Below, piece after piece: positions 4,549 to 39,865 of a stretch of DNA of 64,000 bases. The notes under the pieces were generated by a model. It ran no database searches. It saw only the letters and a program-made list of their open reading frames with translations, and had not been told where the DNA came from. The stretch is from Candidatus Dormibacteria bacterium (GTDB lineage Bacteria > Chloroflexota > Dormibacteria > Aeolococcales > Aeolococcaceae). Both the position numbers and the translations under genes were made by a program. Numbering within the stretch: position 1 is the stretch's first letter; each line of letters begins with the position of its first letter. Location of the stretch: the NCBI GenBank assembly GCA_049964715.1, contig JBMFXB010000007.1, forward strand, positions 4,698 through 68,697, given 5' to 3'.

Positions 4549-4631
4549 TGCGTCATTTGTATCGTTCCGTGCAACAATGGAACAGATCCAACCATGAAGC
4601 ACTTGTGTGTTTCGATTGATTGAGAGCTCAT

Positions 4632-6599: not shown

Positions 6600-6721
6600 G
6601 ATCTCGTAGCATACCATCAACTGTACGAATGTGAGTGATGACGCTGTTCTGGATTTTCCAACGTGGTACCATCACTACAAGGTGAACATGGAGTGTGTTC
6701 ACCGAGGTAACAGGAGCAAGG

Positions 6722-7612: not shown

Positions 7613-7620
7613 CAACGGTA

Positions 7621-8163: not shown

Positions 8164-8305
8164 CGCAGATTTCCCGCCCAGGGACTGCAGCTCTATCGAC
8201 TAGCCACGTTGCGTAGGATGCGTGAAGTCTGGGTTAAGCGAGGATTCGTTACCACCGACTTGCTGGCAAGGGTCATGTGATCTTCTGGACGAGTGCACTT
8301 CGTGC

Positions 8306-9247: not shown

Positions 9248-9252
9248 AGAGC

Positions 9253-10275: not shown

Positions 10276-10293
10276 GCTGGATTCTCTCCGGTC

Positions 10294-21615: not shown

Positions 21616-23340
21616 GTGTCCCTTTTGGATAGAGTTCAGCAAAAGTCGCAACAAGCAGCAGGGCAGCAGGGCGCCAATCCTGCTACTTCAGGTGTGCCTC
21701 CTGCTGCACCACAAGTTGCATCTCCGAATTCACCACCACCCCCACCACCCCCACCAGTACTTCCTCCAAAGCAACAAATCCCGCCAGTTCAGGGAGGGGC
21801 AGGTCTTCTCAGCAGGACACAGCCACCTCAGGCACCAGTGCAACAGGCACCTCCTCTAGCGCTAACAGCGACTCCTGTACAACAGTCTCTTCAGGCACCA
21901 CAAGATGAAGAAGAGGATGCTGGTGGTGCAGGATGGGGTGTACGGAAGTCTGCAGGCGATAGTACTGAAACCCCGCCCGCGCCCCAGCAAATGCGTCAGA
22001 CACTCCTCAGCAGAACTGGGGGGATTTCAACAGTCACTCAGCGGCAGAATGCAGCTGGAGCTTCCTTCCAGAACCTTCGGCAACTTGTGAAGCAACGTCT
22101 GGTTGGTGAAATGGCAGAGGAGGAGGATATTGCACTTCCGCCACATGTCATTCGACAAAGAATAGAGGAACTTGTTGGTGAGATTTCTATCGAGTTGAGC
22201 CTCAATCTCACGAGGATTGATCGTCAACGTGCTGTGGAAAGCATTGTTCAAGATGTTATCGGCTTCGGTCCTCTCGACAGTCTCATTGCAGATCCAGACA
22301 TTTCAGAAATAATGATCAATGGTCCAAAGCAGATTTATATTGAGCATGCTGGAAAGCTTGTCCTTTCGGAAGTACAGTTCGAAACCAATGAACAACTCAT
22401 GCAAGTCATTGACAAGATTGTCAGCAGTATTGGACGTCGTGTTGATGAGTCATCACCTATGGTAGATGCTCGTCTCAAGGATGGCTCCCGTGTAAATGTC
22501 ATCATTCCTCCACTTGCTCTCTGCGGTCCTACTATGACAATCCGAAAATTTGCGAAGGAACGATACCAGACGAACGATCTCATTCGATTCGGCTCTGTCA
22601 CGGATGACATGCTCACGTTTCTTCGGGCATGTGTTCGTGGACACCTCAACATGATTGTTAGTGGTGGTACTGGTTCTGGTAAGACGACAACACTCAACAT
22701 CCTGAGTGCCTTTATTCCGGATACTGAACGGATAGTAACCATCGAGGATGCTGCTGAACTTCAACTCCAGCAGGATCATGTCATTACGTTGGAGTCACGA
22801 CCTGCAAACGTGGAAGGAAAGGGAAGAATTGCCATTCGTGATCTCCTCATGAATGCTCTGCGCATGCGACCAGACCGTATTGTCGTTGGTGAGTGTCGTG
22901 GTGGAGAAGCTCTCGACATGCTCCAGGCCATGAATACTGGTCATGATGGCTCGATGACTACCATCCATGCGAACAATCCACATGACTGTATTGCGCGACT
23001 TGAGACTCTCGTGCTCATGGCTGGTGCGGAACTTCCTGCCCGAGCCATTAGGGAACAGATTGGCTCAGCTGTGCACATCATCACGCAGCAGTCTCGGCTT
23101 CGAGATGGCACCCGTAAGATGATCAGCATCACCGAGGTGCTCGGAAAGGTTGGTGACTCGGTGAAGACGCAGGAGATTTTCACGTTCAAGCAAACAGGCA
23201 TTGGCGAAGACGGCAAGGTTCTTGGGTACTTCACTCCTACTGGCAACATTCCCCGCATTCTCAGAAAACTCCGTGCTGAAGGCGAAGATATTCCAGAAGA
23301 GATCTTTGACCCGTCACGAGTTTCGAAACTGGCCTCGTAG
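21616..23340 (+). CDS. cpaF: Tad pilus assembly ATPase CpaF/TadA
   Basis: GGTGSGKTT, TIEDAAEL, RIVVGECRG and NTGHDGSMTTIHAN. A Pro/Gln-rich N-terminal extension; GTG start with a GGGAGG SD. Confidence 0.95.
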   Translation: MSLLDRVQQKSQQAAGQQGANPATSGVPPAAPQVASPNSPPPPPPPPVLPPKQQIPPVQGGAGLLSRTQPPQAPVQQAPPLALTATPVQQSLQAPQDEEEDAGGAGWGVRKSAGDSTETPPAPQQMRQTLLSRTGGISTVTQRQNAAGASFQNLRQLVKQRLVGEMAEEEDIALPPHVIRQRIEELVGEISIELSLNLTRIDRQRAVESIVQDVIGFGPLDSLIADPDISEIMINGPKQIYIEHAGKLVLSEVQFETNEQLMQVIDKIVSSIGRRVDESSPMVDARLKDGSRVNVIIPPLALCGPTMTIRKFAKERYQTNDLIRFGSVTDDMLTFLRACVRGHLNMIVSGGTGSGKTTTLNILSAFIPDTERIVTIEDAAELQLQQDHVITLESRPANVEGKGRIAIRDLLMNALRMRPDRIVVGECRGGEALDMLQAMNTGHDGSMTTIHANNPHDCIARLETLVLMAGAELPARAIREQIGSAVHIITQQSRLRDGTRKMISITEVLGKVGDSVKTQEIFTFKQTGIGEDGKVLGYFTPTGNIPRILRKLRAEGEDIPEEIFDPSRVSKLAS

Positions 23341-23531: not shown

Positions 23532-23622
23532 GGTACATAACTGCACCTCAATCTCATTGAGAGCAGCAACAAGGTAGAAAACGGTGCGTTACATCCCGCA
23601 CCGGACACATGTGGGGAAGGAC

Positions 23623-24927
23623 ATGGAAACAGCAGAGCATGAGGTAACTGGAGAAGGCGTACAGGTTGAGCGACTTCCTGGGTCAAAGGTACGGTTGAGC
23701 GTTCATGTGGGTTCAGGTGAAGTTGCACATGCAGTTGATCATGCAACACGTGCCCTATCACGAAAAGTGAAGATTCCCGGGTTTCGTCCTGGAAAAGCAC
23801 CTGCTCCTGTCGTTGAACGTCATATTGGTTGGGAATCCATCCGGAGCGAGGCTGTAGAGCACCTTCTCAATGATGTGTTTCTTCGGGTTGTATCTGAACA
23901 GCAGATCGTGCCAGTTGGAGATCCCACAGTTGAATCCATGGGCACGCTTGAGAAGAACCAGGAATTGGATGTTGTACTGGTCGTGGCAGTTCGGCCTGAT
24001 GTGACCATTGATGGGTACGAGGCAATTCGAGTCGATGTTCCTTCGGACGAAGTGACTGACGAAGAAGTAGGCAGGGCACTCGAAGATGTACGCTCCCGAT
24101 TTGCTGAGACAACTGATGTCGATCGACCTGCCCAGGCAGGTGATGTCGTTGTAGTTAAGGCGGTCATGAAACGTGGCGACGAAATCGTCGGAGGCAGTGA
24201 CGAGCAGGAGCAGGAAATGCTTCTCGACAGGGAACGTCTCCTCGACGGCATGGTAGATGGAATTGTTGGTCTCAAGATTGGTGAATCACATACTTTTCCC
24301 GTGACCTTGCCTGACTCATATCCGACTGAGGAACTGCGGAATGTAACAGTCGATACGACAGTACAACTCGTGGGAGTGAAGGAGCGAACATTGCCCCCGC
24401 TCGATGATGCACTGGCAGTCAAGGATGGCCATGGAGAAACGCTGGAGGAGCTTCGTGCCCACTATCGTTCTGTCATTGAGAGCCAGAAGCACCAGCAAAA
24501 TCAGGATGCATTTGAGCAATCCGTGATTGAAGAGCTGGACAGCATTCTTAAGGTTGATCTTCCTGAGGTAATGGTGGAACTTGAACTTGACCAGTGGCTG
24601 TACGACACGGCAATGCGTTTCAGTCAGTTGGGAATTCCGTTCGAAAGGTATATGGAATATACCAATGCCACGCCTGAACAGTGGAAGAGTGAGCGTCGGG
24701 ATGAGGCTACCCAGCGAGTTCGGGTCCGGCTTGCCCTTGATGAGATTGCAAAGCGTGAAGGGGTTGAGCTTGATGAGTCAGCTGTGGAGGCAGAAGTCGT
24801 CAGACTCGCTGAGGGTCAGAAGGCAACAGCTCAGGATCTTGAAAGGCTGCGGCAAATGACTCGTCGGCAACTTCTCCGACAGGGTGCACTCAATCGCATG
24901 ATTGAAATTGCTCGTGGAGAGGAATAA
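23623..24927 (+). CDS. tig: Trigger factor
   Basis: Signature [10 protein letters not shown] and an FKBP-like middle domain. Canonical tRNA-Leu-tig-clpP-clpX context. Confidence 0.95.
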
Positions 24928-24967
24928 CTGGTACAACACCAAACAGCTGCTGAAGGAATCCGATACA

Positions 24968-25636
24968 ATGACTGCAATGAATACTCAGATCAACAACCTT
25001 ATCCCCATGGTTGTGGAATCAACCAACCGCGGCGAGCGTGCCTTTGATATCTATTCACGATTGTTGAAGGATCGCATCATCTTCATCGGAACTCCCATTG
25101 ATGACCAGGTAGCAAATGTGGTCATGGCCCAACTGCTCTTCCTTGAGGGCGAGGATCCTGAGAAGGACATAATGCTGTACATCAACTCGCCTGGGGGATC
25201 TGTGTATGCAGGTCTTGCAATCTACGACACGATGCAGTACGTGAAGCCTCGGGTTGGGACGATCTGCATGGGTCTTGCAGCATCCATGGCAGCCATTCTA
25301 CTTGCAGGTGGAGCAAAGGGCGTTAGGTACAGTCTTCCCAACGCACGCATCATGATTCACCAGCCATCAGGTGGTTTCCAGGGGCAGGCTACGGATATAG
25401 AAATACATGCTCAGGAGATTCTCCATATCCGGAAGCGCATCGACGAAATTCTTTCAGAGCATACAGGCAAGCCTGTAGAAGAGATTCACCGGGATTCTGA
25501 ACGTGACCACTTCCTCACTGCTGAGCAGGCGAAGGACTATGGTCTTATTGATCAGATCATCGTTGGCAAGTCACCTCTCCTTCCGACTGCGGATGTCAAA
25601 GCTTCTTCAGTCACTGGGAAGGACGGGAAAGAATAG
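24968..25636 (+). CDS. clpP: ATP-dependent Clp protease proteolytic subunit
   Basis: [22 protein letters not shown], catalytic GLAASM, MIHQP and RDHFL. Confidence 0.97.
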
Positions 25637-25803
25637 CCGTTTTACCTCTGATCATATGTGCCTCGGTGACTCTTCCTGTATGAGTTTTGCAGAGGTGCAG
25701 TTCATGGGTATGAAACAATTGCGTCGCCACCTATGATAGGGAGAGAGGGCGTATTACCATATAGAGAAAGATCAACTGCAGTTCGAACAGGTGAGGTGTC
25801 ACG

Positions 25804-27099
<1,296 letters not shown>

Positions 27100-27104
27100 G
27101 TCCC

Positions 27105-27740
27105 GTGAGTACGGAGCAGAGGAGGGATCGACGGGAACGTGTGGTGCGCTGGCTACGGATGCATGTCAGGGCTGTCATGCTTGTTGGAACTATCGTAATC
27201 GTGCTTGTAGTGTCAGGTGGATATGTACTGGCACTTCGGTCAGTTCCTGCAGCGTGCACATATCCTGCGCCAATTATTTCATTGCCAGTCTCCCTTCGTG
27301 CAGCAGGAGAACTTGAACAGCCCCTGCCACTGGTAAACGGGAATGTGGATGCAACAAGTGCGACTGAGGCTATTCAGACAATGTATCCGGATATTGCTGC
27401 ACCACTTGCACTCCCGGAAATTCGTGAACTACCTCTCCGGCAGTCAGCACCCCCTGTCATCGTTATTCCGTTCAGAAGTCAAGTAGGGACAAATCATGTA
27501 GAGGCAGTCTTGGTGTTTGCAGTGAGTTGCAGTAATGAAGCGTACTTCAGTACTGCAGAAAACTGGCAGCGAGGACCGAATGCAAAGTCTCCTCCAGTCT
27601 CTTCGTACATTCAGGTGTCTGCGCAGCAAGCAAAGGATCTGCTTCACGTATCATCGCCGTTGAGACTCGTGTACAGGAATAATCCGCTCAACCCACTCTG
27701 GGAAGATCCACGTACAGGGATGAGAACGAGCGCACGATAG
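27105..27740 (+). CDS. Hypothetical membrane-anchored/secreted protein
   Basis: GTG start 5 nt after clpX. A basic N-terminus, one TM segment and a soluble domain with two Cys. Confidence 0.65.
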   Translation: MSTEQRRDRRERVVRWLRMHVRAVMLVGTIVIVLVVSGGYVLALRSVPAACTYPAPIISLPVSLRAAGELEQPLPLVNGNVDATSATEAIQTMYPDIAAPLALPEIRELPLRQSAPPVIVIPFRSQVGTNHVEAVLVFAVSCSNEAYFSTAENWQRGPNAKSPPVSSYIQVSAQQAKDLLHVSSPLRLVYRNNPLNPLWEDPRTGMRTSAR

Positions 27741-27794
27741 ATCAATGCATGGAACGGCACAGGATGCAGGCCGTTGCTCTGTATACTCGGACGT

Positions 27795-30455
27795 ATGGAT
27801 TCATCGTTTCGTCCGCATACAGTAGAAGATCGTTGGCGGGCTAGGTGGGATGACCTCGCTGTTGGAACTCCACCAGCACCTTCAAACCGACCAACATTCA
27901 CGATCGCTCTCCCCCCTCCCAATGTCACTGGAGTTCTGCATTGTGGGCACGCAGCTGGCTCTACAGTCCAGGACATTCTCATCAGATTTCATCGAATGAA
28001 TGGCTACGATGTCGAGTGGACTCCTGGCACTGACCATGCAGCCATCGCTACACAGAATGTCATAGAACGGCAGCTTGCACGTGAGGGCACGTCGAAAGAG
28101 CAACTGGGACGTGATGCATTCAACGAACGGGTAGAACAGTGGTACAAGGAATACGGGGGAAAGATCCTTGACCAGATGCGTCGCTTGGGATTCATCTGTG
28201 ATTGGAGCAGAACACGATTCACGCTCGATGAGGCATACGTTCGTTCCATTCGCATGCTGTTCAAGCATCTGTTTGATACTGGCAAGATTTACCGCGGGCC
28301 ACGATTGGTCAACTGGTGTCCCAGGTGTCGGTCTGCAATTAGTGATGAAGAGGTGGAGTGGAAGGAGCATGAGGATGCTCTCTACCAGATTTCATATCCC
28401 GTGGATGGGGGAGGTGTCCTCGTCGTTGCCACTGTACGGCCAGAGACAATGCTGGGGGATGCTGGGATTGCAGTAGCACCCGGAGATGAACGTTACCGTG
28501 CATTCGTTGGGAAGATGGCAACAGTTCCCCTTGCAGGACAGTCTATACCCGTGTTTGAGGATGCAGCTGTAGAGAAGGAGTTTGGCACTGGGGTACTCAA
28601 GGTCACACCAGCGCACGATCCCACGGACTATGCCATTGGTGAGCGGCACGGACTCGAGGTTCATTCAGTAATTGCAGAAGACGGCACTATCGATTTTCCT
28701 GCACTTCCAGAACTTCACGGTATGGATGCTGCAGAAGCTCGTCCCAAAATCGTTGAGATGCTCCGTGCAGTCGGAGCTCTTGTGGGAGTGGATCCATACG
28801 TACATTCTGTTGGACACTGCGATCGATGCGGACATGTCATAGAACCCCTCATCAGTTCACAGTGGTGGGTGGCAATGAAGGACTTCATTGGTCCAGCAAC
28901 CGCTGCCGTAACATCTGGCAGCATAGCTTTTCATCCGAAACGGTATGAAAACGGGTATCTCAACTGGCTCGAAAATCTTCGTGACTGGTGCATTAGTCGC
29001 CAGCTTTGGCTTGGTCATGCCATTCCTGTATCGACGTGCAGCAACGGGCATGTCTTTGCCTGGGTGGATGCACCGGAAACCTGCCCAACGTGTGGTGATA
29101 CGGCACTCACTGCAGATCCCGATGTGCTTGATACCTGGTTCAGCAGCGCAATCTGGCCATTTGCAATTTATGGGTGGCCGGAGTCTTCGGAGGATCTCGC
29201 AAGGTTCTATCCAACCGATGTTCTCGTAACAGCGAGGGAGATCATTCCACTCTGGGTTGCACGCATGATAATGATGGGAGAGGAGTGCATGGGAAAACTT
29301 CCTTTCCATGATGTCATCATCACAGGAACGATTCAGGCTCCAGATGGCAGCAGGATGTCGAAATCAAAGGGCAATGTTGTCGATCCACTCGACATGGTTG
29401 AGAAGTACGGTGCAGATGCTGTCCGTGCATGGGCATCATCCGTAGGTACTTCAGGACAGGATGTACGCTTCGATGAGAGCAAGATCGCCTCCTACCAGAA
29501 ATTTGGAAACAAACTGTGGCAGGTGACACGGTTCCTTCTTGGTCGACTTGCACCTGAAGGGGTGGACGAGCTTCCATATATAGAGAAGCCTTCTATCCTT
29601 GCTCTAGAAGACTTGTGGATTCTTGACAAGTGCAATGAAGCAATTGTCACTGTGACAAAGGGGATCAACGAGTTCCATTTTCTTGAGTCAATCGACAGCC
29701 TGTACGAGACGATTTGGCATGTCTTCTGTGACTGGTATGTCGAGATGGTAAAGTCAAGAATTCCCATGCATTGGGACGGAACTACTCCACTCTCTCAAGA
29801 TGAAGCAGCTGCTGCTTGGACAGCGACATCAGTGTTGCATGTCCTTCTTCGTCTCCTTCATCCCATCATGCCGTTTGTGACTGAGGAATGTGGGCAACTT
29901 TTTCCCCAGGCACTGCCCACTCTCCTGGATGCAGCATGGCCAGAAGTGTACCCCGATACATTGGCTGCACGTACTTCCATCGAGGAAGTTGCACGAGCAC
30001 TTGAAGCTGTCACAGCAGTGCGTGCTGCTACGCAACACGGGACGCTTTCACTCAAAGGGGGTGCGACAGTGTACTTGGAGAGAACTTCTTCAACTGCACC
30101 CATTTCTGGAGATGTAGTACGGATCATGTCGAACCTTCTCCGTTGTCAGGTGGTCACTGGCAACACACATCCCCAGTCTGCATCCAATCTCCAGATTGTA
30201 GCTGGAGGTTTGACGTGTGCAGTCCATGTCAGTGTGCACCAGGGACAGGATTTGCAACGAACTCAATCGACCTCTGCACGGCTTGCGGAGAAAGAAAAGT
30301 ACCGGGATCGTCTCCGTGCACAACTGAGGAATGATGCATTCTTGACCAAGGCACCACGAGAAGTGGTTGCAAAGACAGAGCAGACACTTGCTGAAGTGGA
30401 GCACGAGATTGCAGCACTTCGGGGAGACAGACAGCCAGCGGAGGAGCATTCGTGA
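27795..30455 (+). CDS. valS: Valine--tRNA ligase
   Basis: PPPNVTGVLHCGH (HIGH), GTDHAAIATQ, DWCISRQLWLGH, DVLDTWFSS and RMSKSKGN. C-terminal coiled coil. Confidence 0.96.
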   Translation: MDSSFRPHTVEDRWRARWDDLAVGTPPAPSNRPTFTIALPPPNVTGVLHCGHAAGSTVQDILIRFHRMNGYDVEWTPGTDHAAIATQNVIERQLAREGTSKEQLGRDAFNERVEQWYKEYGGKILDQMRRLGFICDWSRTRFTLDEAYVRSIRMLFKHLFDTGKIYRGPRLVNWCPRCRSAISDEEVEWKEHEDALYQISYPVDGGGVLVVATVRPETMLGDAGIAVAPGDERYRAFVGKMATVPLAGQSIPVFEDAAVEKEFGTGVLKVTPAHDPTDYAIGERHGLEVHSVIAEDGTIDFPALPELHGMDAAEARPKIVEMLRAVGALVGVDPYVHSVGHCDRCGHVIEPLISSQWWVAMKDFIGPATAAVTSGSIAFHPKRYENGYLNWLENLRDWCISRQLWLGHAIPVSTCSNGHVFAWVDAPETCPTCGDTALTADPDVLDTWFSSAIWPFAIYGWPESSEDLARFYPTDVLVTAREIIPLWVARMIMMGEECMGKLPFHDVIITGTIQAPDGSRMSKSKGNVVDPLDMVEKYGADAVRAWASSVGTSGQDVRFDESKIASYQKFGNKLWQVTRFLLGRLAPEGVDELPYIEKPSILALEDLWILDKCNEAIVTVTKGINEFHFLESIDSLYETIWHVFCDWYVEMVKSRIPMHWDGTTPLSQDEAAAAWTATSVLHVLLRLLHPIMPFVTEECGQLFPQALPTLLDAAWPEVYPDTLAARTSIEEVARALEAVTAVRAATQHGTLSLKGGATVYLERTSSTAPISGDVVRIMSNLLRCQVVTGNTHPQSASNLQIVAGGLTCAVHVSVHQGQDLQRTQSTSARLAEKEKYRDRLRAQLRNDAFLTKAPREVVAKTEQTLAEVEHEIAALRGDRQPAEEHS

Positions 30456-30916
30456 TTGCATTAGCCATTCCCCATGCACTTGTCGTAACGACACAGTGGC
30501 TTATTGCGTATGGTGTCGTACTATGGCTCGTTGTTGCATGGTCAGTAGTTCACGATGCGATGCGCCGGAGTGACCAGTACTGGTTCTATGCCATTGCTCT
30601 CATTCTTGGGCTGTTTCCTCCATTTCTGGGAGCAATCCTGTATTGGATCATCCGTCCTGCAAGTACGCTAGCCGAGCGAGAAACACAGAAGTTGGAACAG
30701 GCAATGCTTCGTGAAGCTGGAGGACCTCTTTGTCCAACATGTCACTCACAACTTCACGAGGATTTCCTTCTTTGTCCTGTGTGCCGCACGAGAGTTGCTC
30801 ATGCATGTAGATCATGTTCAAAGACTCTTGATGTCGCCTGGAAGGTATGTCCATATTGTGAGACACCAGTGGAGGTGTCTGGATCGAAGAAGGAAACTGC
30901 TGCAGGCACGGTGTAG
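30452..30916 (+). CDS. Membrane protein with PLDc_N-like hairpin and C-terminal double zinc ribbon
   Basis: Two TM segments (..DAMRR...PFLGAILYWIIRP), then CPTC, CPVC, CRSC and CPYC. A 4-nt overlap with valS. Confidence 0.85.
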   Translation: MIALAIPHALVVTTQWLIAYGVVLWLVVAWSVVHDAMRRSDQYWFYAIALILGLFPPFLGAILYWIIRPASTLAERETQKLEQAMLREAGGPLCPTCHSQLHEDFLLCPVCRTRVAHACRSCSKTLDVAWKVCPYCETPVEVSGSKKETAAGTV

Positions 30917-30917
30917 T

Positions 30918-32576
30918 ATGCCTGGAATCGTCACAAACGGTGCATCCCTCCTCATTGCGACGATAGTAGCGATGGCAGGAGTGGTTGCTGCTCACAGGTC
31001 TAGGAGGGCTGTGAAGAGTATCGTTGTCGTGACTGCTGCTCTCATGCTGCCACTTGCTGCACTAGCAGTTCGTGCAGTGGTACAGGGCGGGCCAGAGGTT
31101 GCAAGTCTTTGGCTTCTTCTGCCGCAGGTGCATGTTGTGTGGGACATGAGCCAGGTTGCTGCTGTGGGATGTTCCTGCATTTGCCTTGCATTCGGTGCGA
31201 TTGCCCTTGGGGATTGGACAACTGCCCGCACAGTGCTTCCACTCTTCGTAGGTGGCATCGGAGGAATTCTTGCATGGTGCACAGGCAATTTTGTCTGCAT
31301 GCTTGCAGCACTCATCTTGGTGAATGGATCGTTCATACTTCAGGAGCGGCCGAAGCTGCAGCTTTCGTGGGGAATTGCTGTTCTCCCCATTGCAATCCTT
31401 GCCCTTGCGAATATAACGCTCCTTTCAAGCTTTGGTACGAGCGACTATTTCCTCATAGGGAGCAATGCTGGTGGGTATTGGGTGGGATTTGGCTTGCCTC
31501 TTGCTGGTTATCTGGAATGCGTGCTGCCTGCTGTTGTTGCCTGGAAGTCAGGAACACTTCAACGAGGAATATGGACTGCAGTAGTTGGTGCTGCACTCCT
31601 GGCTCACACAGCTGAGGTAATTGGTCTGCAACAGCTGCAAAGCGGTCCAATTGCAGCTGCAACAATAGTGAGCTGTACGACTATCATGTTGGGCATCCTG
31701 GGATACCACTGGCGGGAATCCGGCCGTCATGCCCTTCTTGCCCTGTATGCAGCAGTCTCTGGACCAGCAGTGATATCACTGTACTTTTCTGATGAGGCAA
31801 CCATCCTTGTCATGATTCTTTGCACTGCAGTCTCACTGCTTGTAATCTGCACTGTTGTTCCGGATGTCCGGTTTCTTGAAGCAAATCGCTATCGCTGGAC
31901 AGGTTGGTTGCATCGGGCAATACTTCTTGGTGCAGCAGGTGTACCGCCCGGGGCTGCAGCCATTGGTTGGTGGTCCATCCTTGCCCTCCTTATTGCACGT
32001 GGTCCAACGTGGACTGCTGCCAGTATCCTTGCACTTGCTGCATGGCTTTCAGTGATTGCACTTGCTGTGGTTCTTGCACGTGGCTTCTCACCCTTGCGGA
32101 GCGATGCCACTCAATCACGTTCACCATGTCTTCGTGAACGCATGGCAGCAATTCTTGGCATTATTGTGCTGTTTGGCACAGGTCTCATTCCAGCTGTGCC
32201 TGTTGGGGGAGTGCTGAGTCTTCTTGCATCAGCAAACCTGGTTGTTGCTTCCTCAACTACACTTCAACTTCCTGGTGGCGTTGTCGGCAGTGCTGCACTT
32301 GGTAGTGCAGTGATCGTGCTTGTACTCTTCGGGTGGGCACTTGGAACCCTGTCGGGAACTGTGGTGTATCAGGATGTGGAGTTACCAGCAACTCATGAAA
32401 CATTACCAATTGGCCTGCATGCAGGCCAGGCAATTCGAGGTCTGGGTGCACTAGGATGGCACATGTGGAGACGTGGTGTCCACTACCTCAATGAAGGTGA
32501 TCTTTTGCTCCGGGATCAACCCCGACTTGCCATGATTCTCGTTGGGGCAGCAATCATCATAGTATTGGTGCATTGA
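30918..32576 (+). CDS. Divergent proton-translocating-subunit-like (NuoL/MrpA/HyfB-like) membrane protein
   Basis: 552 aa with about 14-16 TM segments. LLGAAGVPP resembles the antiporter-like LxGxPP motif. The conserved Glu/Lys are not evident. Confidence 0.55.
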   Translation: MPGIVTNGASLLIATIVAMAGVVAAHRSRRAVKSIVVVTAALMLPLAALAVRAVVQGGPEVASLWLLLPQVHVVWDMSQVAAVGCSCICLAFGAIALGDWTTARTVLPLFVGGIGGILAWCTGNFVCMLAALILVNGSFILQERPKLQLSWGIAVLPIAILALANITLLSSFGTSDYFLIGSNAGGYWVGFGLPLAGYLECVLPAVVAWKSGTLQRGIWTAVVGAALLAHTAEVIGLQQLQSGPIAAATIVSCTTIMLGILGYHWRESGRHALLALYAAVSGPAVISLYFSDEATILVMILCTAVSLLVICTVVPDVRFLEANRYRWTGWLHRAILLGAAGVPPGAAAIGWWSILALLIARGPTWTAASILALAAWLSVIALAVVLARGFSPLRSDATQSRSPCLRERMAAILGIIVLFGTGLIPAVPVGGVLSLLASANLVVASSTTLQLPGGVVGSAALGSAVIVLVLFGWALGTLSGTVVYQDVELPATHETLPIGLHAGQAIRGLGALGWHMWRRGVHYLNEGDLLLRDQPRLAMILVGAAIIIVLVH

Positions 32577-33217
32577 CAATGGACCAGACGCTGTATAGCT
32601 CCATTGCATTTATTGCTGCATTCATCGTTAGTGCAGTAGATGGAAGGCGTGCTGTATCGTGGTCACTTATTGCAGCAGGCGTTGGATTAGCCGGGACAGC
32701 AGCCTCTGCAGCAGGCCTTGATGGTGCCCTCCTGCTTGTGGGTGCTGTTGTGTGTGGAGGTATTCTTGAAAGAGTCGCTGAATGGCTCGTGAGGAGCCGT
32801 TGGCAGTCTTCTGCACAGGATCCACTCCGGGAATTCAGGAGTGTCCAAGAGAAGCTCTTTGGGCCCAGAAGTCAGCGCGTCATTGCAGCAGCAATTGCTG
32901 TTCCGGCAGCCTCCTGGGTGAGTTTCAACATACCTGTTGGATCTGTTGCAAATATTGAGGGGGTCCTGTTTGCATCCTGCATTCTCTGGTTGTGTGGCAT
33001 TTTTCGGCTCGTACTTGCCCGGACGATTGAGGATGTCTGTGCAGGAACCGGAGTCGTACTCCTGGCAACAGCAGTCGGCTGGCTCGAACGGACAGGACAA
33101 AGTGGCCTACCAGAGTATGTCGTTCTCCTTGTGAGCACGGCTGGTATTGCACTTCTTGCCGGTATTCTCAATGGTCGTTACCTGCACCACGTGGATCAGG
33201 GAGTTGAGCATGCCTGA
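32573..33217 (+). CDS. Membrane protein, HyfE/NuoJ-K-sized
   Basis: 214 aa with about 7 TM segments, translationally coupled to its neighbours. The C-terminal GIFRLVLAR pattern loosely resembles NuoK/HyfE. Confidence 0.45.
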   Translation: MTMDQTLYSSIAFIAAFIVSAVDGRRAVSWSLIAAGVGLAGTAASAAGLDGALLLVGAVVCGGILERVAEWLVRSRWQSSAQDPLREFRSVQEKLFGPRSQRVIAAAIAVPAASWVSFNIPVGSVANIEGVLFASCILWLCGIFRLVLARTIEDVCAGTGVVLLATAVGWLERTGQSGLPEYVVLLVSTAGIALLAGILNGRYLHHVDQGVEHA

Positions 33218-34466
33218 TATCCGCTTGGTCCTTGGTATCTGGCTCATCACGGGCGTGGTGGATGGAGTTGTGCATGTTGCTCTTCGGAGAAGAAGGTGGA
33301 ACTGGAGTGTTGGTCTCGTGCTCCATGTAGGCTGGTCGCTTTTGTTGTGGTGGGGTGTATTGGGGATGGGGGTACATCCTGACCCAATGATTCGGGCTGG
33401 AGTAGGTATTATCCTCACTGCAGCAATGGCAACAGCAGTTCTTATGCCACTCACGGGAGAAGTAGATCTCCGGGACTACGCAGTCCTCGCATGGATCACT
33501 GGTGCAGTCTTGTATGCAGTCCAGGTGACAGATCCTCTTGCTGTGGCATTCATGATCGGAGCTGGCAGTGCCCTTGTGGCAGGATGGTGGTTCTACTGCG
33601 CACCTGGCACAGAGACGCTCCGTGCAGCACGATTGCTTGGTGTTGCAGCAGGACTGCTGCTTGCAGCTGCCATATTTCTGCCAGTTCAGGTGACTGCAGT
33701 GGCGACAAAGTTTGCTTTTGTTGCATGGCTGTATATCGCTGTCCTTGTCATTTATACGGGATGCATTCCTGTACAGGGGTGGTTAGTGAGTGTTCTGCAT
33801 CGGCTTCAGGGAAGACATCTCCTGCTGTGGATTAGTGTTGTTGTGCCAGGCACACTCATCGTGCTGGAACGAGCAATCCAGATACAGCCACTCCCTGTCC
33901 AGAACATTATTCTCCAGACGACGCTAGGCATCGGTTGCATCAGTGCAGTGTGGGAGGGGATTCTTTCAGTCCGAATATCTTCACCACGTGAGCGGCATGC
34001 ACGACTCCTCCTTATGGACATTGCATTGATGGTTGTGGGAGTGGGAAGCGGATCGCCATACGGATGGACGGGGACTTTCTTGCTGGTACTGGTTCATGTG
34101 GGAACCCTCGCATTTGTCGGGGACAGGGAAGGAAGTACAACGGGAAGGAAGGGTCGCATGGGTGCCTGGATATTCCTTGGAGGGATACCTTTTACAGGAG
34201 TGTTCTGGGGAAGATGGTTGATACTTCTTGCAGCATGGGATGTAGGGTCATGGTATCCATGGTTCGTCCTTGCTGCAATGGGCCTTGCTTCTTTCTCCAG
34301 CTTCCGACAGGCCCGCTTCGAAAGAGACCTTCCTGAAGTAACTCCTGCCTTTCGATCATGGATACCACTTGGAATCCTTTCGTTGCAACTTGTTCTGGGG
34401 CTTGCTCCTGCAACAATATGCAGCTTCGTGTTCGGAATGACACTCCTCCCGGGGGTGGGACACTAG
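33210..34466 (+). CDS. Divergent NuoN/MrpD/HyfF-like membrane protein
   Basis: 418 aa. GCIPVQGWL resembles GxxPFHxWL, GWTGTFLLVLVH resembles the TM11 His motif, and LGGIPFTGVFWGRWLI resembles LAGxPPxxGFxGKxxI. Confidence 0.65.
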   Translation: MPDIRLVLGIWLITGVVDGVVHVALRRRRWNWSVGLVLHVGWSLLLWWGVLGMGVHPDPMIRAGVGIILTAAMATAVLMPLTGEVDLRDYAVLAWITGAVLYAVQVTDPLAVAFMIGAGSALVAGWWFYCAPGTETLRAARLLGVAAGLLLAAAIFLPVQVTAVATKFAFVAWLYIAVLVIYTGCIPVQGWLVSVLHRLQGRHLLLWISVVVPGTLIVLERAIQIQPLPVQNIILQTTLGIGCISAVWEGILSVRISSPRERHARLLLMDIALMVVGVGSGSPYGWTGTFLLVLVHVGTLAFVGDREGSTTGRKGRMGAWIFLGGIPFTGVFWGRWLILLAAWDVGSWYPWFVLAAMGLASFSSFRQARFERDLPEVTPAFRSWIPLGILSLQLVLGLAPATICSFVFGMTLLPGVGH

Positions 34467-35209
34467 TGGATCCTGTCGTGCTCTTCGCTTCCATTGTCGC
34501 AGTGATGGTGTATCCAGGAGGAGTGGTGCTGTATCTCCCTGCAATGTGTGCACGAGTTGCCCATCTTGTGGAGATGCGAGCACAACAACTCCCGTCAGGT
34601 CGTCCACTTATTGGAACCGGCACTGTGATTGCCCTCCTTGCCTGTGCAGTTGCTGCAGCCCAACTTCCCTTGCCAGGAAATCTCCTTACCTCGAGCATTG
34701 TCGTTGCACATGGTTCATATACGGATGTGGCAGTGTTCCTTGTTGCGTCCTCCATTGCATTGGTTGCAAGTGTTCGTAACCGGTTGGCACCATCACAAAT
34801 GCTCTCTGCTGGCGCTGCTGTCCTTGCGTTACTTGTGCTTGCAATTCATGCCCGATCTCTGACGTTTGCTGCTGTAGTGGAGACTGGTGGATCCCATGCA
34901 GCCTTGCTGCATGTCATTGCAGGTATTGTGTATGTACTTGTTGCACCAGGATTGTTGAGTGTATTCAACAGCAGGATTCATCTCACAGCCCCACTTACTG
35001 TTACATTTCTCTTGTGGGAACTCATCGTTGCACTGGCGATCCTTCCAGCTTTTGCCACTTGGGTTGCATGGGTTGGGGCCGTGTTTGTACTCCTGGTATT
35101 GGGTGGAGCAGTTTGGAAGGCACGCAAGATGACAGTACTTGTGCGGATAACGAGCATTGCATCAATACTCTGTGCTTGTGTGCTGATGGTCATTGGCGTG
35201 AAGAACTAG
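34466..35209 (+). CDS. Divergent NuoH/HyfC-like membrane protein
   Basis: GTG start overlaps the upstream TAG. MVYPGG, QLPLPG, TDVAVFL and AIHARSLTFAAVV resemble NuoH-family motifs; about 8 TM segments. Confidence 0.5.
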   Translation: MDPVVLFASIVAVMVYPGGVVLYLPAMCARVAHLVEMRAQQLPSGRPLIGTGTVIALLACAVAAAQLPLPGNLLTSSIVVAHGSYTDVAVFLVASSIALVASVRNRLAPSQMLSAGAAVLALLVLAIHARSLTFAAVVETGGSHAALLHVIAGIVYVLVAPGLLSVFNSRIHLTAPLTVTFLLWELIVALAILPAFATWVAWVGAVFVLLVLGGAVWKARKMTVLVRITSIASILCACVLMVIGVKN

Positions 35210-35240
35210 ATCTTGTTCCACTGACTCATGTTTGCAACAA

Positions 35241-35263
35241 CCCCCCTTCACAAACTGGGGGGG
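35241..35263 (+). terminator. C6/G7 stem-loop after the membrane-gene cluster
   Basis: CCCCCC-ttcacaaact-GGGGGGG, 31 nt after the stop at 35209. There is no U tract. Confidence 0.3.
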
Positions 35264-35296
35264 CTGGATGGTACGATTAAAAGGCAGGAGGTACCA

Positions 35297-36028
35297 GTGC
35301 GTATGACCAGTTCCACATCTAAATCAATTCGTGGTGGGGAATCCCCGCTGCCTACTGGTCCATCACCTATTATCCTTGCTTCCACGAGTCCACGACGACA
35401 GGCTCTTCTCGCCCGATGTGGAATCCGGTTCAGTGTCCAGGAACCTGGTACTGAGCTCCAAATGCCTCCTGGACTGAGTTGTGATCTTGGAGTACAGCTT
35501 ATTGCACGTCAGAAGGCTCTCTCAGTTGCAGAGCACTCAAGTGCGAATGCATTCATCATTGCAGCGGATACAATCGTTGTTGGCCCTGAAGGACCATTGG
35601 GAAAACCATACACTCCAGAACGTGCTCGGGAGATGCTAAAACTCCTCATTGGGAACAGGCACACTGTGCTAACGGGGGTGTGTGTTGCAACAGCCCATGG
35701 TGAGACCATTGAGCTTGGTGTGAGTCGTTCAGCCGTGAAAATGCGCGATGTAAGTGACGAAGATCTTGATACGTACGTAGCTTCTGGCGAGCCTCTCGAC
35801 AAGGCAGGTGCATATGCAGTGCAGGAAGGCGGAAGGGATCTTGTTGAGGCTGTGATGGGACGTGTTGACACAGTGGTGGGTCTTGATGTGGAGCTTACGC
35901 TACAGCTTCTTTTGCGGGTTGGATATCCGAATCCACTGCCAGCATCGACTGACATTGCACTTCCTCCACGTGGGAATGCAAGGCGACCCTTTGCATCGCT
36001 CCAGACGAGTGGAACGTTTCGCGTCTAG
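35297..36028 (+). CDS. maf: Maf/YhdE family nucleoside triphosphate pyrophosphatase
   Basis: ILASTSPRR, ARQKA, IAADTIV, LGKP and DKAGAYAVQ. An AGGAGG SD precedes the GTG. Confidence 0.92.
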   Translation: MRMTSSTSKSIRGGESPLPTGPSPIILASTSPRRQALLARCGIRFSVQEPGTELQMPPGLSCDLGVQLIARQKALSVAEHSSANAFIIAADTIVVGPEGPLGKPYTPERAREMLKLLIGNRHTVLTGVCVATAHGETIELGVSRSAVKMRDVSDEDLDTYVASGEPLDKAGAYAVQEGGRDLVEAVMGRVDTVVGLDVELTLQLLLRVGYPNPLPASTDIALPPRGNARRPFASLQTSGTFRV

Positions 36029-36079
36029 GGAACGGGAGGAGTAGGGGAAACCGTGCAGAACTACTTTCGTGGGCTGCGG

Positions 36080-37108
36080 ATGCGTTTCCTGTTCACATGG
36101 ACAAGTGTACCTGTCCTGGGGCTGATCCTCATGGCAGGAATCACAGCATGTGGAAGTGGGGGTTCACCGCTTCACGTGTCAATTGCACCAGTGACAGGTG
36201 GAGCACTGCAGGCTGGAAATGCCTTTACCTTCAATGCAACAATTCACAATACGAGTGCCAACCAGGTAGATAATGTTGGACTCAGTGTTGCCCTACCAGC
36301 AGAATCGCGTTACCGTTCTACCCTTGCAAGTAGTGATGTGCAGGTTTCCCGGGTAAGCCCGATAGATCCACAGATCAACTCATCGAATCCTGTGTGGGGG
36401 ACTTGGTCTCTTGGACCTGCTGGAAGTGCCTCCGATACCCTTAGTGTTGAGTTCGTTGTTGCTGTTGCTGGTTCACCTGGAACATATCCTATTACAGCCT
36501 ACGCCACAGGAGGTTCTGCAACCGTTACCTCGACTCGTACCGTGCAGATCGTAGGTGAGCCAAACTATGAGGTTGGGCTTTCTGCAACACCAGGTTCTGC
36601 CCCTGCGGGGAGTATTGTCGCCTATGCTGTCACTATCATCAATACTGGACACGGGGATGCACACCAGGTCGAGATCCTGCTCAACCTTCCTCCTGGCATA
36701 CAGTATGTGAAGACACTGCACATTGCTGGAAGTGCAGATATCCAGCGCACCACAACTTTCGATCCTCCATCAGGATCTGAAGAAGTGTTTTTTGGGAACT
36801 GGTCAATGCCCGGTGTGTCAAACGCGACAGGGTCATCTACACTCACGATTGAGTTCGAGGCGAGTATTCTTCCAGATGCGAAAGCTGGTACAACGTACGT
36901 GACTGGACAGCTTACTGACGGAGCAGATGCAATCATACCCATCGTCAAGGCTGCAGAGCTTACAATCACTCCTGCATCAAGTCCTAGTGCCTCACCTTCA
37001 GGAGGGAGCAGTAGTGGGACAGGGACTGCTCCCACACCATCCGAAACACCACTTCCCAGTGGTGCAGCAACTGAAGGTGGAGTCAGTCCAACACCCAGTC
37101 CGAGCTAG
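36080..37108 (+). CDS. Lipoprotein with two DUF11-like Ig domains and Ser/Pro/Thr tail
   Basis: Lipobox ITAC. Two repeats of the FTFNATIHNT / YAVTIINTG ... LP..xYxxT pattern. Confidence 0.75.
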   Translation: MRFLFTWTSVPVLGLILMAGITACGSGGSPLHVSIAPVTGGALQAGNAFTFNATIHNTSANQVDNVGLSVALPAESRYRSTLASSDVQVSRVSPIDPQINSSNPVWGTWSLGPAGSASDTLSVEFVVAVAGSPGTYPITAYATGGSATVTSTRTVQIVGEPNYEVGLSATPGSAPAGSIVAYAVTIINTGHGDAHQVEILLNLPPGIQYVKTLHIAGSADIQRTTTFDPPSGSEEVFFGNWSMPGVSNATGSSTLTIEFEASILPDAKAGTTYVTGQLTDGADAIIPIVKAAELTITPASSPSASPSGGSSSGTGTAPTPSETPLPSGAATEGGVSPTPSPS

Positions 37109-37197
37109 GGAGCAGGAGCAGAATTCCCCTATGATTGTGGTATGCTCAACTATCGTAATGGTATGTGAGTAATGGGAAGAGAGAGGAGTTGGCGAAT

Positions 37198-37638
37198 ATG
37201 ACGTACGCCATCATTGCAGAAGGCGGTCACCAGTATCGCGTTCATGAGGGAGACAGGCTTCTCGTCAATCGTCTCGAGGCATCAGTTGGTCAGTCTGTCA
37301 CACTTGGAGAGGTCCTCTTTCTCGTGGAAGAATCCAAGGGATCTTCTACACTCGTGCAGGAAGGCTCAGTTGAGGCAACTGTTGTTGCGCATCGTCGTGG
37401 CAAGAAACTCAGAGTGTTTACCTACAAGGCAAAGAAGCGGGAACGGCGTACACTCGGCTTCCGGAGTGATCTTACTGAGGTCGAGATTGCGAAGATTCAC
37501 AAATCCCGTGCAGACCATGCACCAAAAGGACATAAAGAAGCTGCATCAGCTACAGAGTCTGCAGCAAAGGCTCTTGCACGTGCACATACACCACGTAAGA
37601 CAGTTGCTCTTGATGATTCGGAAGGGAAGGGAGAATAA
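37198..37638 (+). CDS. rplU: 50S ribosomal protein L21 (with C-terminal extension)
   Basis: MTYAIIAEGGHQYRV and VFTYKAKK...GFRSDLT. It precedes rpmA. Confidence 0.95.
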   Translation: MTYAIIAEGGHQYRVHEGDRLLVNRLEASVGQSVTLGEVLFLVEESKGSSTLVQEGSVEATVVAHRRGKKLRVFTYKAKKRERRTLGFRSDLTEVEIAKIHKSRADHAPKGHKEAASATESAAKALARAHTPRKTVALDDSEGKGE

Positions 37639-37641
37639 GAG

Positions 37642-37938
37642 ATGGCACACAAGAAAGGCGGCGGCAGTTCCCGGAATGGTCGCGATAGCCGTGGACGTCG
37701 TCTTGGCATCAAGCGCCAGGATGGGAATCTCGTACTTGCAGGCTCGATCATAGTCAGGCAACGTGGCACGAAGATTCTTCCTGGTGAAAATGTAGGAGTC
37801 GGTAGGGATCACACCCTGTACGCACTCTCCACTGGTGTTGTTGTCTTTGACAAGACCAGGGCAGAGCGGACCCGTGCAAATGTGGAAGAGATCCCAATTC
37901 TCGAACTCATCGAGGAGACCGTTGCTGCCGCGGAGTGA
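37642..37938 (+). CDS. rpmA: 50S ribosomal protein L27
   Basis: [21 protein letters not shown] and IIVRQRGT. Confidence 0.97.
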
Positions 37939-39241
37939 CCGATTTTCGTTCGATGATGTCACCATAGCAGTAACTGCTGGGACTGGCGGACGAGGGGTAA
38001 CAAGTTTCCACAGGGAGAAGTTTATCCCGGTTGGCTTTCCTGATGGAGGTGATGGCGGACGCGGAGGGAATATTGTTGTCCGTGTCGATTCCCAACTCTC
38101 AACCTTGGACCAGTTCAAGGATCGTCGTATCTTTCGGGCGAAACATGGTGGTGCAGGAAGCAGAAACAACTGTCATGGTGCAAGTGCACCGGATCTCGAA
38201 CTTCGCGTTCCACCAGGGACTGTCATTCGGGATGCGATATCCGGTGCTCTCATTGCTGACCTGGATCATGAGAATGTCACATGTATCATTGCTCATGGTG
38301 GCAGGGGTGGAAGAGGGAATGCAAAGTTTGTGAATTCACGGCGGCAGGCTCCGACGTACAGTGAACTTGGCGAGCCTGGTGAGGATCGACGGATAGAGCT
38401 TGAGCTGAAGCTCATTGCAGATGTTGGACTCATAGGTCTGCCCAATGCCGGGAAGTCGACCCTCCTTGCAGCCCTTACTCGTGCTCATCCTGTTATCGCT
38501 TCATATCCATTTACAACACTCCGGCCCAATCTTGGTGTCCTGTACGGACCACATGATGAACGAGTCGTCCTTGCAGATGTTCCAGGAATCATAGAGGGAG
38601 CACATGTCGGTGTTGGACTGGGTATCGAGTTCCTCAGACATGTGGAACGCACACGGATGCTCATTCATGTTATTGATGGCAGTGCAGGAAAGAATGAGGC
38701 TCTCATGGCACTATCCACTGTCGAGAATGAACTTCGGGCATATGGACATGGACTCATGGAGAAGCCCCATATCATCGTTGTGAACAAGACGGATCTTATG
38801 GATGAAGCCACTGTGAAGGAATTGTGTGATGCCGTTCCTGGGTCACGCAAGATTGGCATTGCTGCAGAGGCGGGCACTGGATGTGAACATCTTGTCGAGC
38901 TCATCATGAGCGAACTTCCTGAACGGCCTTCTGGAGTGGAAGCCAACACTGAGGAACGAATATATGAGCTACCGCATAGTGCGATCTCGAGTGAGTTCAT
39001 GGTCTCTTCTGAGGAAGGTGCATACCGTGTGGCTGGAGCTGAAGTGGAACGGCGCGTTGCCATGACAGACCTGAACAACGAAGAGGCACTGGGTCGTCTC
39101 CAGCGATGGCTACGGTATCGTGGTGTGGAGCAGGCACTCATGGATGCAGGATGTGCTGAAGGTGAAACAGTGCGAATAGGCAAGCAGGAGTTTGTTTTTT
39201 ACCCGGATCATCGAGATGCTGTCCGATCAGATGCAGACTAG
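37922..39241 (+). CDS. obgE: GTPase ObgE/CgtA with C-terminal OCT domain
   Basis: [25 protein letters not shown] and NKTD. The start is inferred as the TTG at 37922 after a GAGGAG SD. Confidence 0.95.
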
Positions 39242-39851
39242 TGCAGTCGTCATTCTTGGTGGAACATTCGATCCATTCCACATTGGCCATCGTGCAATCC
39301 TGACTCAGGTCATGGAACAGCTTGACATTCCCGCTGGATGGGTCATTCCACTCAACTCCCCAGGGCACAGACATGAACCAGTTGCTTCCCCAAGAGATCG
39401 TCTTGCAATGGCAACAATTGGCGTTCGGGATCTTCCAGGTGTGCAAGTACGCGATCTCGAAGTGATCCGGGGTGGAGTGACGTTCACAATTGATACAGCA
39501 AAGGAAATCGCACGAAGCTACCCACAACTCACCCAGTGGTACATCGTAGGTGCTGATGAGGCACGGACGCTTCATGAATGGCATGAATGGCCACTCCTGC
39601 TTGAGTTTGCGAAGGTAGCAATTGTGAACCGTACTGGGAAGGACCCGATATCACGTACAGAGTGTGCAGCACTTGGCATACCTGCTACACACATGGAACT
39701 CCTCACGGTTGACTCTCCACCTATCAGTGCAACGACACTCAGGAATGCACTTTGTGATGCTGATGAGAAACACCTTGTACAGACGTACCTTGCACCTGGA
39801 GTCCTTGCCTACATACAGGAACATCATCTCTACGGGGAGCAGACACACTGA
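39231..39851 (+). CDS. nadD: Nicotinate-nucleotide adenylyltransferase
   Basis: GGTFDPFHIGH, FTIDT, IVGADE and ISATTLR. Located between obg and rsfS. Confidence 0.93.
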   Translation: MQTSAVVILGGTFDPFHIGHRAILTQVMEQLDIPAGWVIPLNSPGHRHEPVASPRDRLAMATIGVRDLPGVQVRDLEVIRGGVTFTIDTAKEIARSYPQLTQWYIVGADEARTLHEWHEWPLLLEFAKVAIVNRTGKDPISRTECAALGIPATHMELLTVDSPPISATTLRNALCDADEKHLVQTYLAPGVLAYIQEHHLYGEQTH

Positions 39852-39865
39852 AGGGGTATGCGATA

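Follow-up and report, generated by a model that had tools for sequence, protein, structure and literature searches.

Profiles and, for one of the pair, a structural model point to two very remote antiporter-like proteins, with a largely replaced charge relay, in a valS-coupled membrane gene cluster of Candidatus Dormibacterota

Ion translocation in complex I, Mrp and membrane-bound hydrogenases is the work of antiporter-like subunits, whose Lys/Glu relay is regarded as an invariant mechanistic core. A locus of a Candidatus Dormibacteria bacterium raises the question of what such a module becomes when this core is replaced. The DNA examined consisted of a 64-kb stretch of one contig (hereafter the window) and of related loci, labelled L001 onward. 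In the window, five genes on the + strand, here named P1 to P5, tightly follow valS, the valyl-tRNA synthetase gene, at the place where an earlier reading of the same DNA (hereafter the original prediction) had located them and described them as the charge-depleted membrane arm of a complex I, Hyf or Mrp-like system. The short motifs quoted in that reading were all found again: GVPP at P2 residues 341–344, GCIPVQGWL at P4 184–192, GGIPFTGVFWGRW at P4 324–336 and VYPGG at P5 15–19. As set out below, two of the five proteins, P2 and P4, belong to the antiporter-like superfamily, and the whole system lies outside the Mrp, complex I and Hyf families as they are defined.

The P4 gene (33210..34466, + strand) overlaps P3 by 8 nucleotides (nt) and encodes a 418-amino-acid protein, which was studied with profiles, AlphaFold2 and Foldseek. 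Pfam and NCBIfam scans of the window proteins P2 to P5 returned nothing, even at E≤1; in particular, P4 and P2 fall below the gathering threshold of PF00361 and do not match this family even at E≤1, and among the P4 relatives only weak PF00361 matches were obtained (4/28, best E 4.6e-4). Comparing three close P4 sequences by hhalign with Escherichia coli NuoN, NuoM, NuoL, HyfB, HyfD and HyfF gave E-values of 0.003–0.011, just over those of shuffle controls and suggestive only. With the P4 family (28–38 members), the same reference set was matched at hhalign probabilities of 88.8–93.4% (E 2.5e-6 to 2.5e-7), colinearly over transmembrane helices (TM) 7 to 12, and the real score of 59 compares with at most 19 for shuffled or reversed alignments. 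Further support comes from a search of the P4 family profile against all sequences of the PDB, where each of the nine matches at E≤10 is antiporter-like (NdhD at 3e-4, MrpD, ND5, ND2). The AlphaFold2 model of P4 (predicted local distance difference test score, pLDDT, 83.5; predicted template modelling score, pTM, 0.87) has 14 TM helices, with breaks at residues 183–190 (GCIPVQG) and 323–330 (GGIPFTG), which is where TM7 and TM12 are discontinuous. Foldseek found 178 matches to this model in the PDB at E≤1e-3, with a query-normalised template modelling score (TM-score) of up to 0.79, and the top 50 are exclusively NuoN, ND2, ND4, NdhB/D, MrpA/D, MbsH or HycC. As judged from these profiles and from the model, P4 is a very remote member of the antiporter-like superfamily, and its proposed kinship with NuoN and HyfF is to that extent borne out by the deep profiles and the fold search.

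P2 (552 amino acids; 30918..32576, + strand, 1-nt gap after P1) evolves fast, sharing 15–23% identity with its syntenic orthologues. Three-sequence profiles of the cluster proteins found nothing relevant among PDB sequences, and three-sequence hhalign comparisons stayed at noise level for P2, P3 and P5. When 34 non-redundant P2 orthologues were aligned, hhalign recovered P4 over 343 columns (90.9%, E 1e-6) and the E. coli NuoL/M/N and HyfB/D/F set over TM1–TM8 (69.6%, E 4e-5); real scores of 48.6–59.3 for P2 and P4 together are to be set against a maximum of 24 in the shuffle and reverse controls. Among PDB sequences, the P2 family profile has a sole match at E≤10, the MrpD subunit of Bacillus pseudofirmus (7qru_D, E 2.1e-5), and this match runs in register from residue 4–7 through the TM5 motif, with GNLVLLFAGVEIA against GDLFNLFVFFEV. 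PF00361 was recognised in none of eight P2 relatives, and the N-terminal half of the protein is closest to MrpD/NuoN. On these profile comparisons, P2 is an antiporter-like protein and a paralogue of P4, which sustains its earlier classification as a NuoL/HyfB-type relative as far as the superfamily is concerned. Its C-terminus (residues 453–552, window 32271–32576) consists of a TM helix (453–476), an amphipathic stretch of about 55 residues with a hydrophobic moment of up to 1.35, and a final TM helix preceded by a conserved D528-x-[WL]-L-x-x-Q534-P535; our impression is that this layout may recall the lateral helix and TM16 of NuoL/MrpA.

To follow the buried charges, we took as reference columns E133 (TM5), K217 (TM7), K247 (TM8) and K395 (TM12) of E. 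coli NuoN, which constitute the lateral proton relay. All six E. coli paralogues have E133 and K217, four of the six have Lys at the K247 position, and the K395 position holds Lys or Glu. Across 38 sequences of the P4 family, the TM5 position is occupied by Leu, Ala or Ile (it is hydrophobic in the window P4), the TM7 Lys position is Leu in 29/38 and Tyr182 in the window, the TM8 Lys position is Val or Ala, and the TM12 Lys position is Arg335 in 38/38. Of the charge relay, P4 keeps just His296 in TM11 (36/38 non-redundant sequences) and the Arg335 that replaces the TM12 Lys. In an alignment of 57 sequences, the invariant residues of P4 are R141 (at the position of NuoN K158), W191, W207, P213, R265 (equivalent to NuoN R296), D270, P327 and R335; P187 and F332 each recur in at least 90% of the sequences.

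The P2 family has followed another course. The TM5 Glu is kept in 28/34 sequences, Arg200 lies near the TM7 Lys position (not directly alignable with it, and Arg rather than Lys) in 23/34, Arg230 is present in 30/34 and Arg274 (equivalent to NuoN R296) in 29/34, and Glu354, three residues past the TM12 Lys position, occurs in 19/34; Gly takes the place of the TM8 Lys, and Leu, Ala or Trp that of the TM12 Lys. The window P2 instead has Ile133, Glu200, His230, Leu274, Trp351 at the TM12 Lys position, and Ile354. The charge set of P2 is full in peat and soil lineages and absent from the acid-mine lineage, the window's own lineage occurring in metagenomes of acid mine drainage and mine tailings. 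Because the TM5 Glu (28/34) and other charges persist in most relatives, the strongest charge depletion of P2 is specific to the lineage of the window. Compared with the sequences from L018–L076, the window clade of P2 forms a fast branch in which most family-conserved residues are replaced, including E133I, R200E, R230H, R274L, E354I and P192G; most of the charge-retaining relatives lie on metagenome contigs of the Joint Genome Institute. These replacements may be adaptive in limiting proton leak, or P2 may have lost its function.

The statement of the original prediction that the TM5 Glu and TM7 Lys are absent from both large subunits is accordingly right for P2 and P4 of the window and for the P4 family as a whole and, as regards the TM5 Glu, does not extend to most P2 relatives, while the replacement of the TM12 Lys by Trp351 in P2 and Arg335 in P4 was recovered by profile alignment of P4 to NuoN and of P2 to P4. 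The label "charge-depleted" needs a similar correction. The total charged fraction of the cluster proteins (0.085–0.105) is that of E. coli NuoL/M/N (0.087–0.098), so that the label applies to lysine and to the buried relay residues only; K/(K+R) amounts to 0.07–0.11 in the membrane proteins of the cluster versus 0.24–0.51 in the soluble proteins encoded beside it. Read from these alignments, the canonical Lys/Glu relay is dismantled.

Of the five proteins, P3 is conserved best, with 83–88% identity among close orthologues and a ratio of nonsynonymous to synonymous substitution rates (dN/dS) of 0.05. The gene was placed at 32573..33217 (+ strand) with a TTG start that would give 214 residues and an overlap with P2. 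All orthologues use an ATG equivalent to position 32579 (MDQTLYSS..., 212 residues, 2-nt gap after P2), and this ATG is likely the genuine start rather than the TTG. The protein has about seven helices, of which the fourth is bordered by the conserved motifs LFGPRSxR and ASWVSFN; D23, F96, R99, R102, W115, R145, G175 and R202 occur in all 55 sequences compared. From the positive-inside rule applied to the model, we infer that the conserved Arg residues would lie on cytoplasmic loops. Although the AlphaFold2 model is confident (pLDDT 91.8, pTM 0.89), Foldseek found no match to it in the PDB, the small Mrp and Nuo subunits included (best E 0.2, TM-score ≤0.32), and the P3 family hidden Markov model (HMM) retrieved nothing relevant among PDB sequences at E≤10. 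Comparison by hhalign gave 0.5–2.1% with HyfE, 0.2% with NuoK and at most 2% with NuoJ and NuoA, single E. coli sequences serving as references, which lowers the sensitivity, and PF00420 appears in 3/55 relatives at sub-threshold level (best E 0.029). The suggestion that P3 is a HyfE-like subunit is therefore not supported; P3 is confidently predicted to adopt a fold unlike any solved structure. In the model, residues 152–213 form one unbroken helix of 62 residues that runs through the polar segment ERTGQSGLPE, where most orthologues have RGGP..P; it may be an exceptionally long helix, tilted or lateral, or else an artefact that arises when one subunit is modelled in isolation.

P5 (247 amino acids; 34466..35209, + strand, GTG start, 1-nt overlap with P4) has about seven hydrophobic segments and is the least conserved protein of the set, with 67–71% identity among close orthologues, a dN/dS of 0.12–0.16 and only about 14 columns, among them P17, G18, P70 and G71, that reach 85% conservation or more across 33 sequences. 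Pfam gave no match to it, its profile retrieved no PDB sequence at E≤10, and relatives outside the cluster were not detected. It had been taken for a NuoH/HyfC-like subunit, an identity that we reject: hhalign against NuoH and HyfC gave 0.08–0.6%, no PDB sequence was matched, and P5 cannot carry the acidic loop PFD..E.E.EL...EYSG, invariant in NuoH/HyfC, because it contains just 5 Asp plus Glu in 247 residues. Homologues of MrpB, C, E, F and G were likewise undetected when P3 and P5 were compared with Pfam and NCBIfam.

P1, a 154-residue membrane-anchored protein (30452..30916, + strand), starts with GTG within a 4-nt overlap with the valS stop. Two N-terminal TM helices and a linker helix are followed by a cytoplasmic double zinc ribbon (DZR), recognised by Pfam PF12773 with E 2.3e-8 (34.5 bits against a cut-off of 27.3). 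Each of its eight cysteines (C94, C97, C108, C111, C119, C122, C133 and C136) recurs in at least 85% of 36 orthologues, and so does the motif PPFLG..IY...RP. The N-terminus gives 12.1 bits (E 0.2) with PLDc_N, PF13396, against a cut-off of 23.3 bits, and to the eye the RDA.RR...PPFLG..IY...RP stretch of the orthologues resembles that family. P1 is missing from L010 (at 7556–7618), L016 (at 3213–3264) and L017 (at 3410–3546).

How widely is this cluster distributed, and is it still under selection? Two metagenome-assembled genomes hold orthologues with 67–88% identity in identical gene order. In these three species no internal stops occur, and pairwise dN/dS is 0.05–0.16 for P1–P5 versus 0.07–0.09 for valS, values that are approximate because dS is saturated. 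They are nowhere near 1 and indicate purifying selection, so that decay, which the original prediction had left as an option to be checked by dN/dS, is excluded. A word-indexed protein search reached only three to four close relatives, even from a 28-sequence alignment, whereas exhaustive HMMER reached about 60; the misses of the indexed search are uninformative for these Ala/Leu/Gly-rich membrane proteins, because its word prefilter is swamped by Ala/Leu-rich words. With the concatenated P2, P3 and P4 as query, the exhaustive search covered 1.84 billion representatives; it yielded distant homologues of P3 (about 25, 28–44% identity, ~210 residues) and of P4 (about 30, 22–31% identity, ~410–420 residues), and matched P2 to nothing besides itself; a scan of GTDB genomes with P2-specific patterns found two close species only. 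The contigs of the distant P4 homologues, together with a metagenome scan using a P3 motif, provided some 60 more related loci, which were annotated with local HMMs. All labelled records belong to Candidatus Dormibacterota, Dormibacteria or Dormibacteraeota, and the proteins are always named 'hypothetical protein' in their sources. A literature search found neither a description of the cluster nor a usable statement on the complex I content of Dormibacterota. The cluster is so far restricted to Dormibacterota and nowhere annotated.

Essentially all sufficiently long loci among these ~60 keep the order valS-P1-P2-P3-P4-P5-maf-DUF11-rplU. The junctions are as stable as the order: P3 and P4 overlap by 4 nt in about 50 of 57 loci, P2 and P3 stand at −4 or +5 nt, P4 and P5 at −4 to +5 nt, and the spacing between P5 and maf is mostly 80–110 nt (~43 loci). 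In the window, valS (27774..30455, + strand, 893 amino acids; orthologues carry Pfam tRNA-synt_1 and Anticodon_1) is the first gene of the transcription/translation unit, and its 4-nt overlap with P1 recurs in many related loci, so the proposed coupling to valS is real and has been kept. Promoter and terminator scans gave chance-level hits only. Broken reading frames were seen in two loci, P2 being split into two overlapping open reading frames (ORFs) in L045 (3330–5010) and P3/P4 fragmented in L064 (366–2172); the cause is a frameshift or an error of assembly, or possibly pseudogenisation at the locus concerned.

The original prediction had seen no redox partner nearby. Families of hydrogenase and Fe-S proteins, of NuoB/C/D/H/I and of MrpC/E/F/G were found neither beside the cluster nor elsewhere in the 64-kb window, and redox families are equally missing from the ~60 related loci, with flanks of up to 10 kb. 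Absence of these genes from the neighbourhood therefore holds for the window and for the relatives. The cluster is independent of any adjacent redox module, conserved in order, under purifying selection and translationally chained to valS.

Among known systems, Mrp (Mnh/Pha/Sha, MrpA–G) is the closest. Like the cluster, it has no redox arm and unites two paralogous antiporter-like subunits and small polytopic subunits in one operon; MrpD is the sole PDB sequence matched by the P2 profile, MrpD and MrpA are among the fold matches of P4 (TM-score 0.71–0.77), and the C-terminal TM/amphipathic/TM extension of P2 may recall the lateral helix of MrpA and NuoL. It differs in having six or seven subunits versus four polytopic ones here, with MrpB, C, E, F and G undetected, and in its relay of TM5 Glu, TM7 Lys, TM8 Lys and TM12 Lys, which is absent from P4 and, in the window lineage, from P2. 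Moreover, the cluster is too diverged for PF00361, includes a membrane protein with a zinc ribbon and is linked to valS by translational coupling. With NuoL/NuoM/NuoN (ND5/ND4/ND2) of complex I, P4 shares the 14-TM fold and the discontinuous TM7 and TM12, its best fold match being E. coli NuoN (TM-score 0.79), and it retains the Pro and Trp of TM7, the position of NuoN Arg296 and those of the TM12 Pro...Phe. However, genes for NuoA/H/J/K or the peripheral arm were not detected, the buried charges are replaced, the antiporter-like subunits number two rather than three, and the partner subunits show no recognisable relationship. The membrane modules of group 4 [NiFe] hydrogenases (Hyf, MBH/MBS) resemble the cluster in that HyfB/D/F belong to the reference profile matched by P2 and P4, HycC and MbsH are among the P4 fold matches, and P3 has about the length of HyfE; they differ in that P3 matches HyfE at about 2% at most and P5 matches HyfC at ≤0.6%, and in that hydrogenase and Fe-S genes are absent here. 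A NuoL-like protein outside a respiratory complex, paired with a dedicated non-Nuo partner, is also found in the DabAB/MpsAB transporters of inorganic carbon or cations. These consist of one charge-retaining subunit recognised by PF00361 and a large soluble DabA/MpsB, whereas the present cluster has two cryptic subunits and small membrane partners; a DabA-like gene was not found in the 64-kb window.

What, then, could the five proteins do? P1–P5 are a Dormibacterota-specific membrane set derived from the Mrp/complex I antiporter module, and we propose, with moderate confidence, that in a non-canonical way this set would move or sense one ion species. The four polytopic proteins would assemble side by side, like MrpA–MrpD or NuoM–NuoN, with P3 and P5 standing in for the small Mrp/Nuo subunits. 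The residual charges might form a single chain over the P4–P2 interface, from P4 His296–Arg335 to P2 Glu133–Arg200 and on to Glu354; the chain is proposed because an analogous contact exists between the TM12 Lys of NuoN and the TM5 Glu of NuoM. A canonical multi-site proton pump would be impossible, because arginine, a poor proton carrier, cannot shuttle protons and P4 is without the central Lys. The half-channel, broken-helix mechanism of the fold would most likely be retained to move or sense a single ion species, and the Arg-rich cytoplasmic face of P3 (LFGPRSxR) would be a likely docking surface, possibly for the zinc ribbon of P1. Since the P2 half of the chain is erased in the acid-mine lineage, P2 would probably be a structural partner there, the conserved sites of P4 and P3 carrying the function. 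A more specific version, which we put forward only tentatively, is that the Arg/His site of P4 (Arg335/His296) replaces the proton relay and that the complex transports or senses something other than protons (for example an anion, a metal ion or the membrane potential), signals via P3 to P1 and is co-expressed stoichiometrically with valyl-tRNA synthetase.

Several points weigh against the proposal of a single-ion device. The proposed charge chain at the P4–P2 interface is drawn by analogy and is not a result; the Arg335–Glu133 pair showed no covariation, Arg335 being invariant even in lineages without Glu133. Since P1 is absent from the three deep lineages L010, L016 and L017, which also lack Glu133 of P2, and P5 is absent from L015, where P4 and maf are separated by 196 nt (4366–4562), neither P1 nor P5 is strictly required. 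Metatranscriptomes of the same study gave no coverage of the locus, with only cross-matches to clpX of other organisms.

Part of the same evidence can be read as that of a working Mrp-type cation/proton antiporter in ordinary pH/Na+ homeostasis, with non-canonical Arg/His/Glu residues and small subunits diverged beyond recognition. The gene content is Mrp-like (two antiporter-like and small polytopic subunits, no redox genes), most P2 relatives have Glu in both TM5 and TM12 and Arg close to the TM7 Lys position, and selection is strongly purifying in a housekeeping context. We nevertheless consider such an antiporter rather unlikely, given that in 38/38 sequences P4 lacks the Glu of TM5 and the Lys of both TM7 and TM8 and has Arg, a poor proton carrier, rather than Lys or Glu in TM12, that the window P2 has lost all the charges of its family, and that MrpB, C, E, F and G homologues were not detected. 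Loss of the relay residues under persisting purifying selection, most extreme in the window lineage, would also suit a fold reused as a non-transporting scaffold, for instance a membrane platform for the envelope or division, or one that anchors a cytoplasmic partner via P3 and P1; the conserved P3 residues on predicted cytoplasmic loops and the envelope- or division-related neighbours (maf, the DUF11/CLIPPER surface protein, rhomboid, PBP1) fit with this. The neighbourhood is weak evidence, however, because the identical order is simply inherited in all loci, and the invariant or highly conserved residues of P4 coincide with the functionally critical sites of the fold (Pro187 and Trp191 where TM7 breaks, Pro327, Phe332 and Arg335 where TM12 does, and His296 in TM11), which argues for more than packing, so that a pure scaffold appears unlikely.

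Antiporter-like subunits normally serve respiratory or hydrogenase-like complexes and split operons exist, so P1–P5 might be the distal membrane arm of such a complex, its redox and NuoH-type subunits being encoded elsewhere in the genome. This we regard as very unlikely: the cluster contains no detectable NuoH-like or NuoA/J/K-like subunit, neither the 64-kb window nor the ~60 loci, with flanks of up to 10 kb, contain redox genes, the operon is tied to valS rather than to energy-metabolism genes, and its subunits have diverged well beyond anything seen in NuoL/M/N, with P2 to P5 of the window lacking a Pfam match at E≤1. Chance similarity among hydrophobic proteins, or decaying remnants, could account for the empty direct searches of Pfam, NCBIfam and, with shallow profiles, the PDB, and for the noise-level comparison of three P2 sequences with the E. 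coli set. It is hardly credible in view of the deep alignments (48.6–59.3 against a shuffle maximum of 24), of the HMM search against PDB sequences and the fold search, two independent methods that return antiporter-like proteins only, and of the dN/dS of 0.05–0.16 in three species whose genes have no internal stops; both chance resemblance and decay are thus excluded by the controls, the fold search, the MrpD match and dN/dS.

Downstream, maf (35228..36028, + strand; nucleotide pyrophosphatase, Pfam Maf E 8e-50) is a conserved neighbour that marks the end of the cluster and is not counted here as part of the proposed complex. It is followed in the window by a DUF11/CLIPPER repeat protein and then by rplU-rpmA-obg-nadD-rsfS. 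The repeat protein (36053–37108) has a signal-peptide-like N-terminus and a Ser/Pro-rich tail; it stands after maf in about 45 related loci and is as fixed here as the membrane cluster. Between clpX and valS lies a conserved 209-amino-acid ORF (27111–27740), also present in L001 and L005 (dN/dS 0.10–0.20), which has one N-terminal hydrophobic segment and a sole, very weak match to FtsQ NF004039 (E 0.044). The order tig-clpP-clpX...valS...maf...rplU-rpmA-obg-nadD-rsfS at 23584–40225 seems to resemble the valS...maf...rplU-rpmA-obg arrangement of Firmicutes, other lineages presumably having different genes at the site of the cluster. Two regions unrelated to the cluster (420–11148 and 21616–23340) carry Tad/type IV pilus-like genes, which encode a T2SSE ATPase, two T2SSF proteins, a SAF/FlgA-like protein and a pair of ParA/MinD-like ATPases, of which one has a receiver domain. 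The other window genes include Tad-type pilus genes, ABC transporters, a GGDEF-EAL protein, tig-clpP-clpX, a rhomboid, PBP1, a MoxR-like ATPase, G6PD and a ROK kinase.

Taken together, these observations describe a branch of the superfamily that is invisible to Pfam and NCBIfam and is a 'hypothetical protein' in every record we encountered. A whole lineage keeps two antiporter-like subunits under strong selection with the relay mostly removed or turned to arginine, which amounts to a natural experiment on the fold, and the graded retention of charges among the P2 relatives offers a ready comparative series for the importance of each residue. If the Arg/His site does serve something other than protons, the cluster would represent a new function for the complex I/Mrp module, with a new protein fold as its core partner, in a housekeeping role in Dormibacterota.

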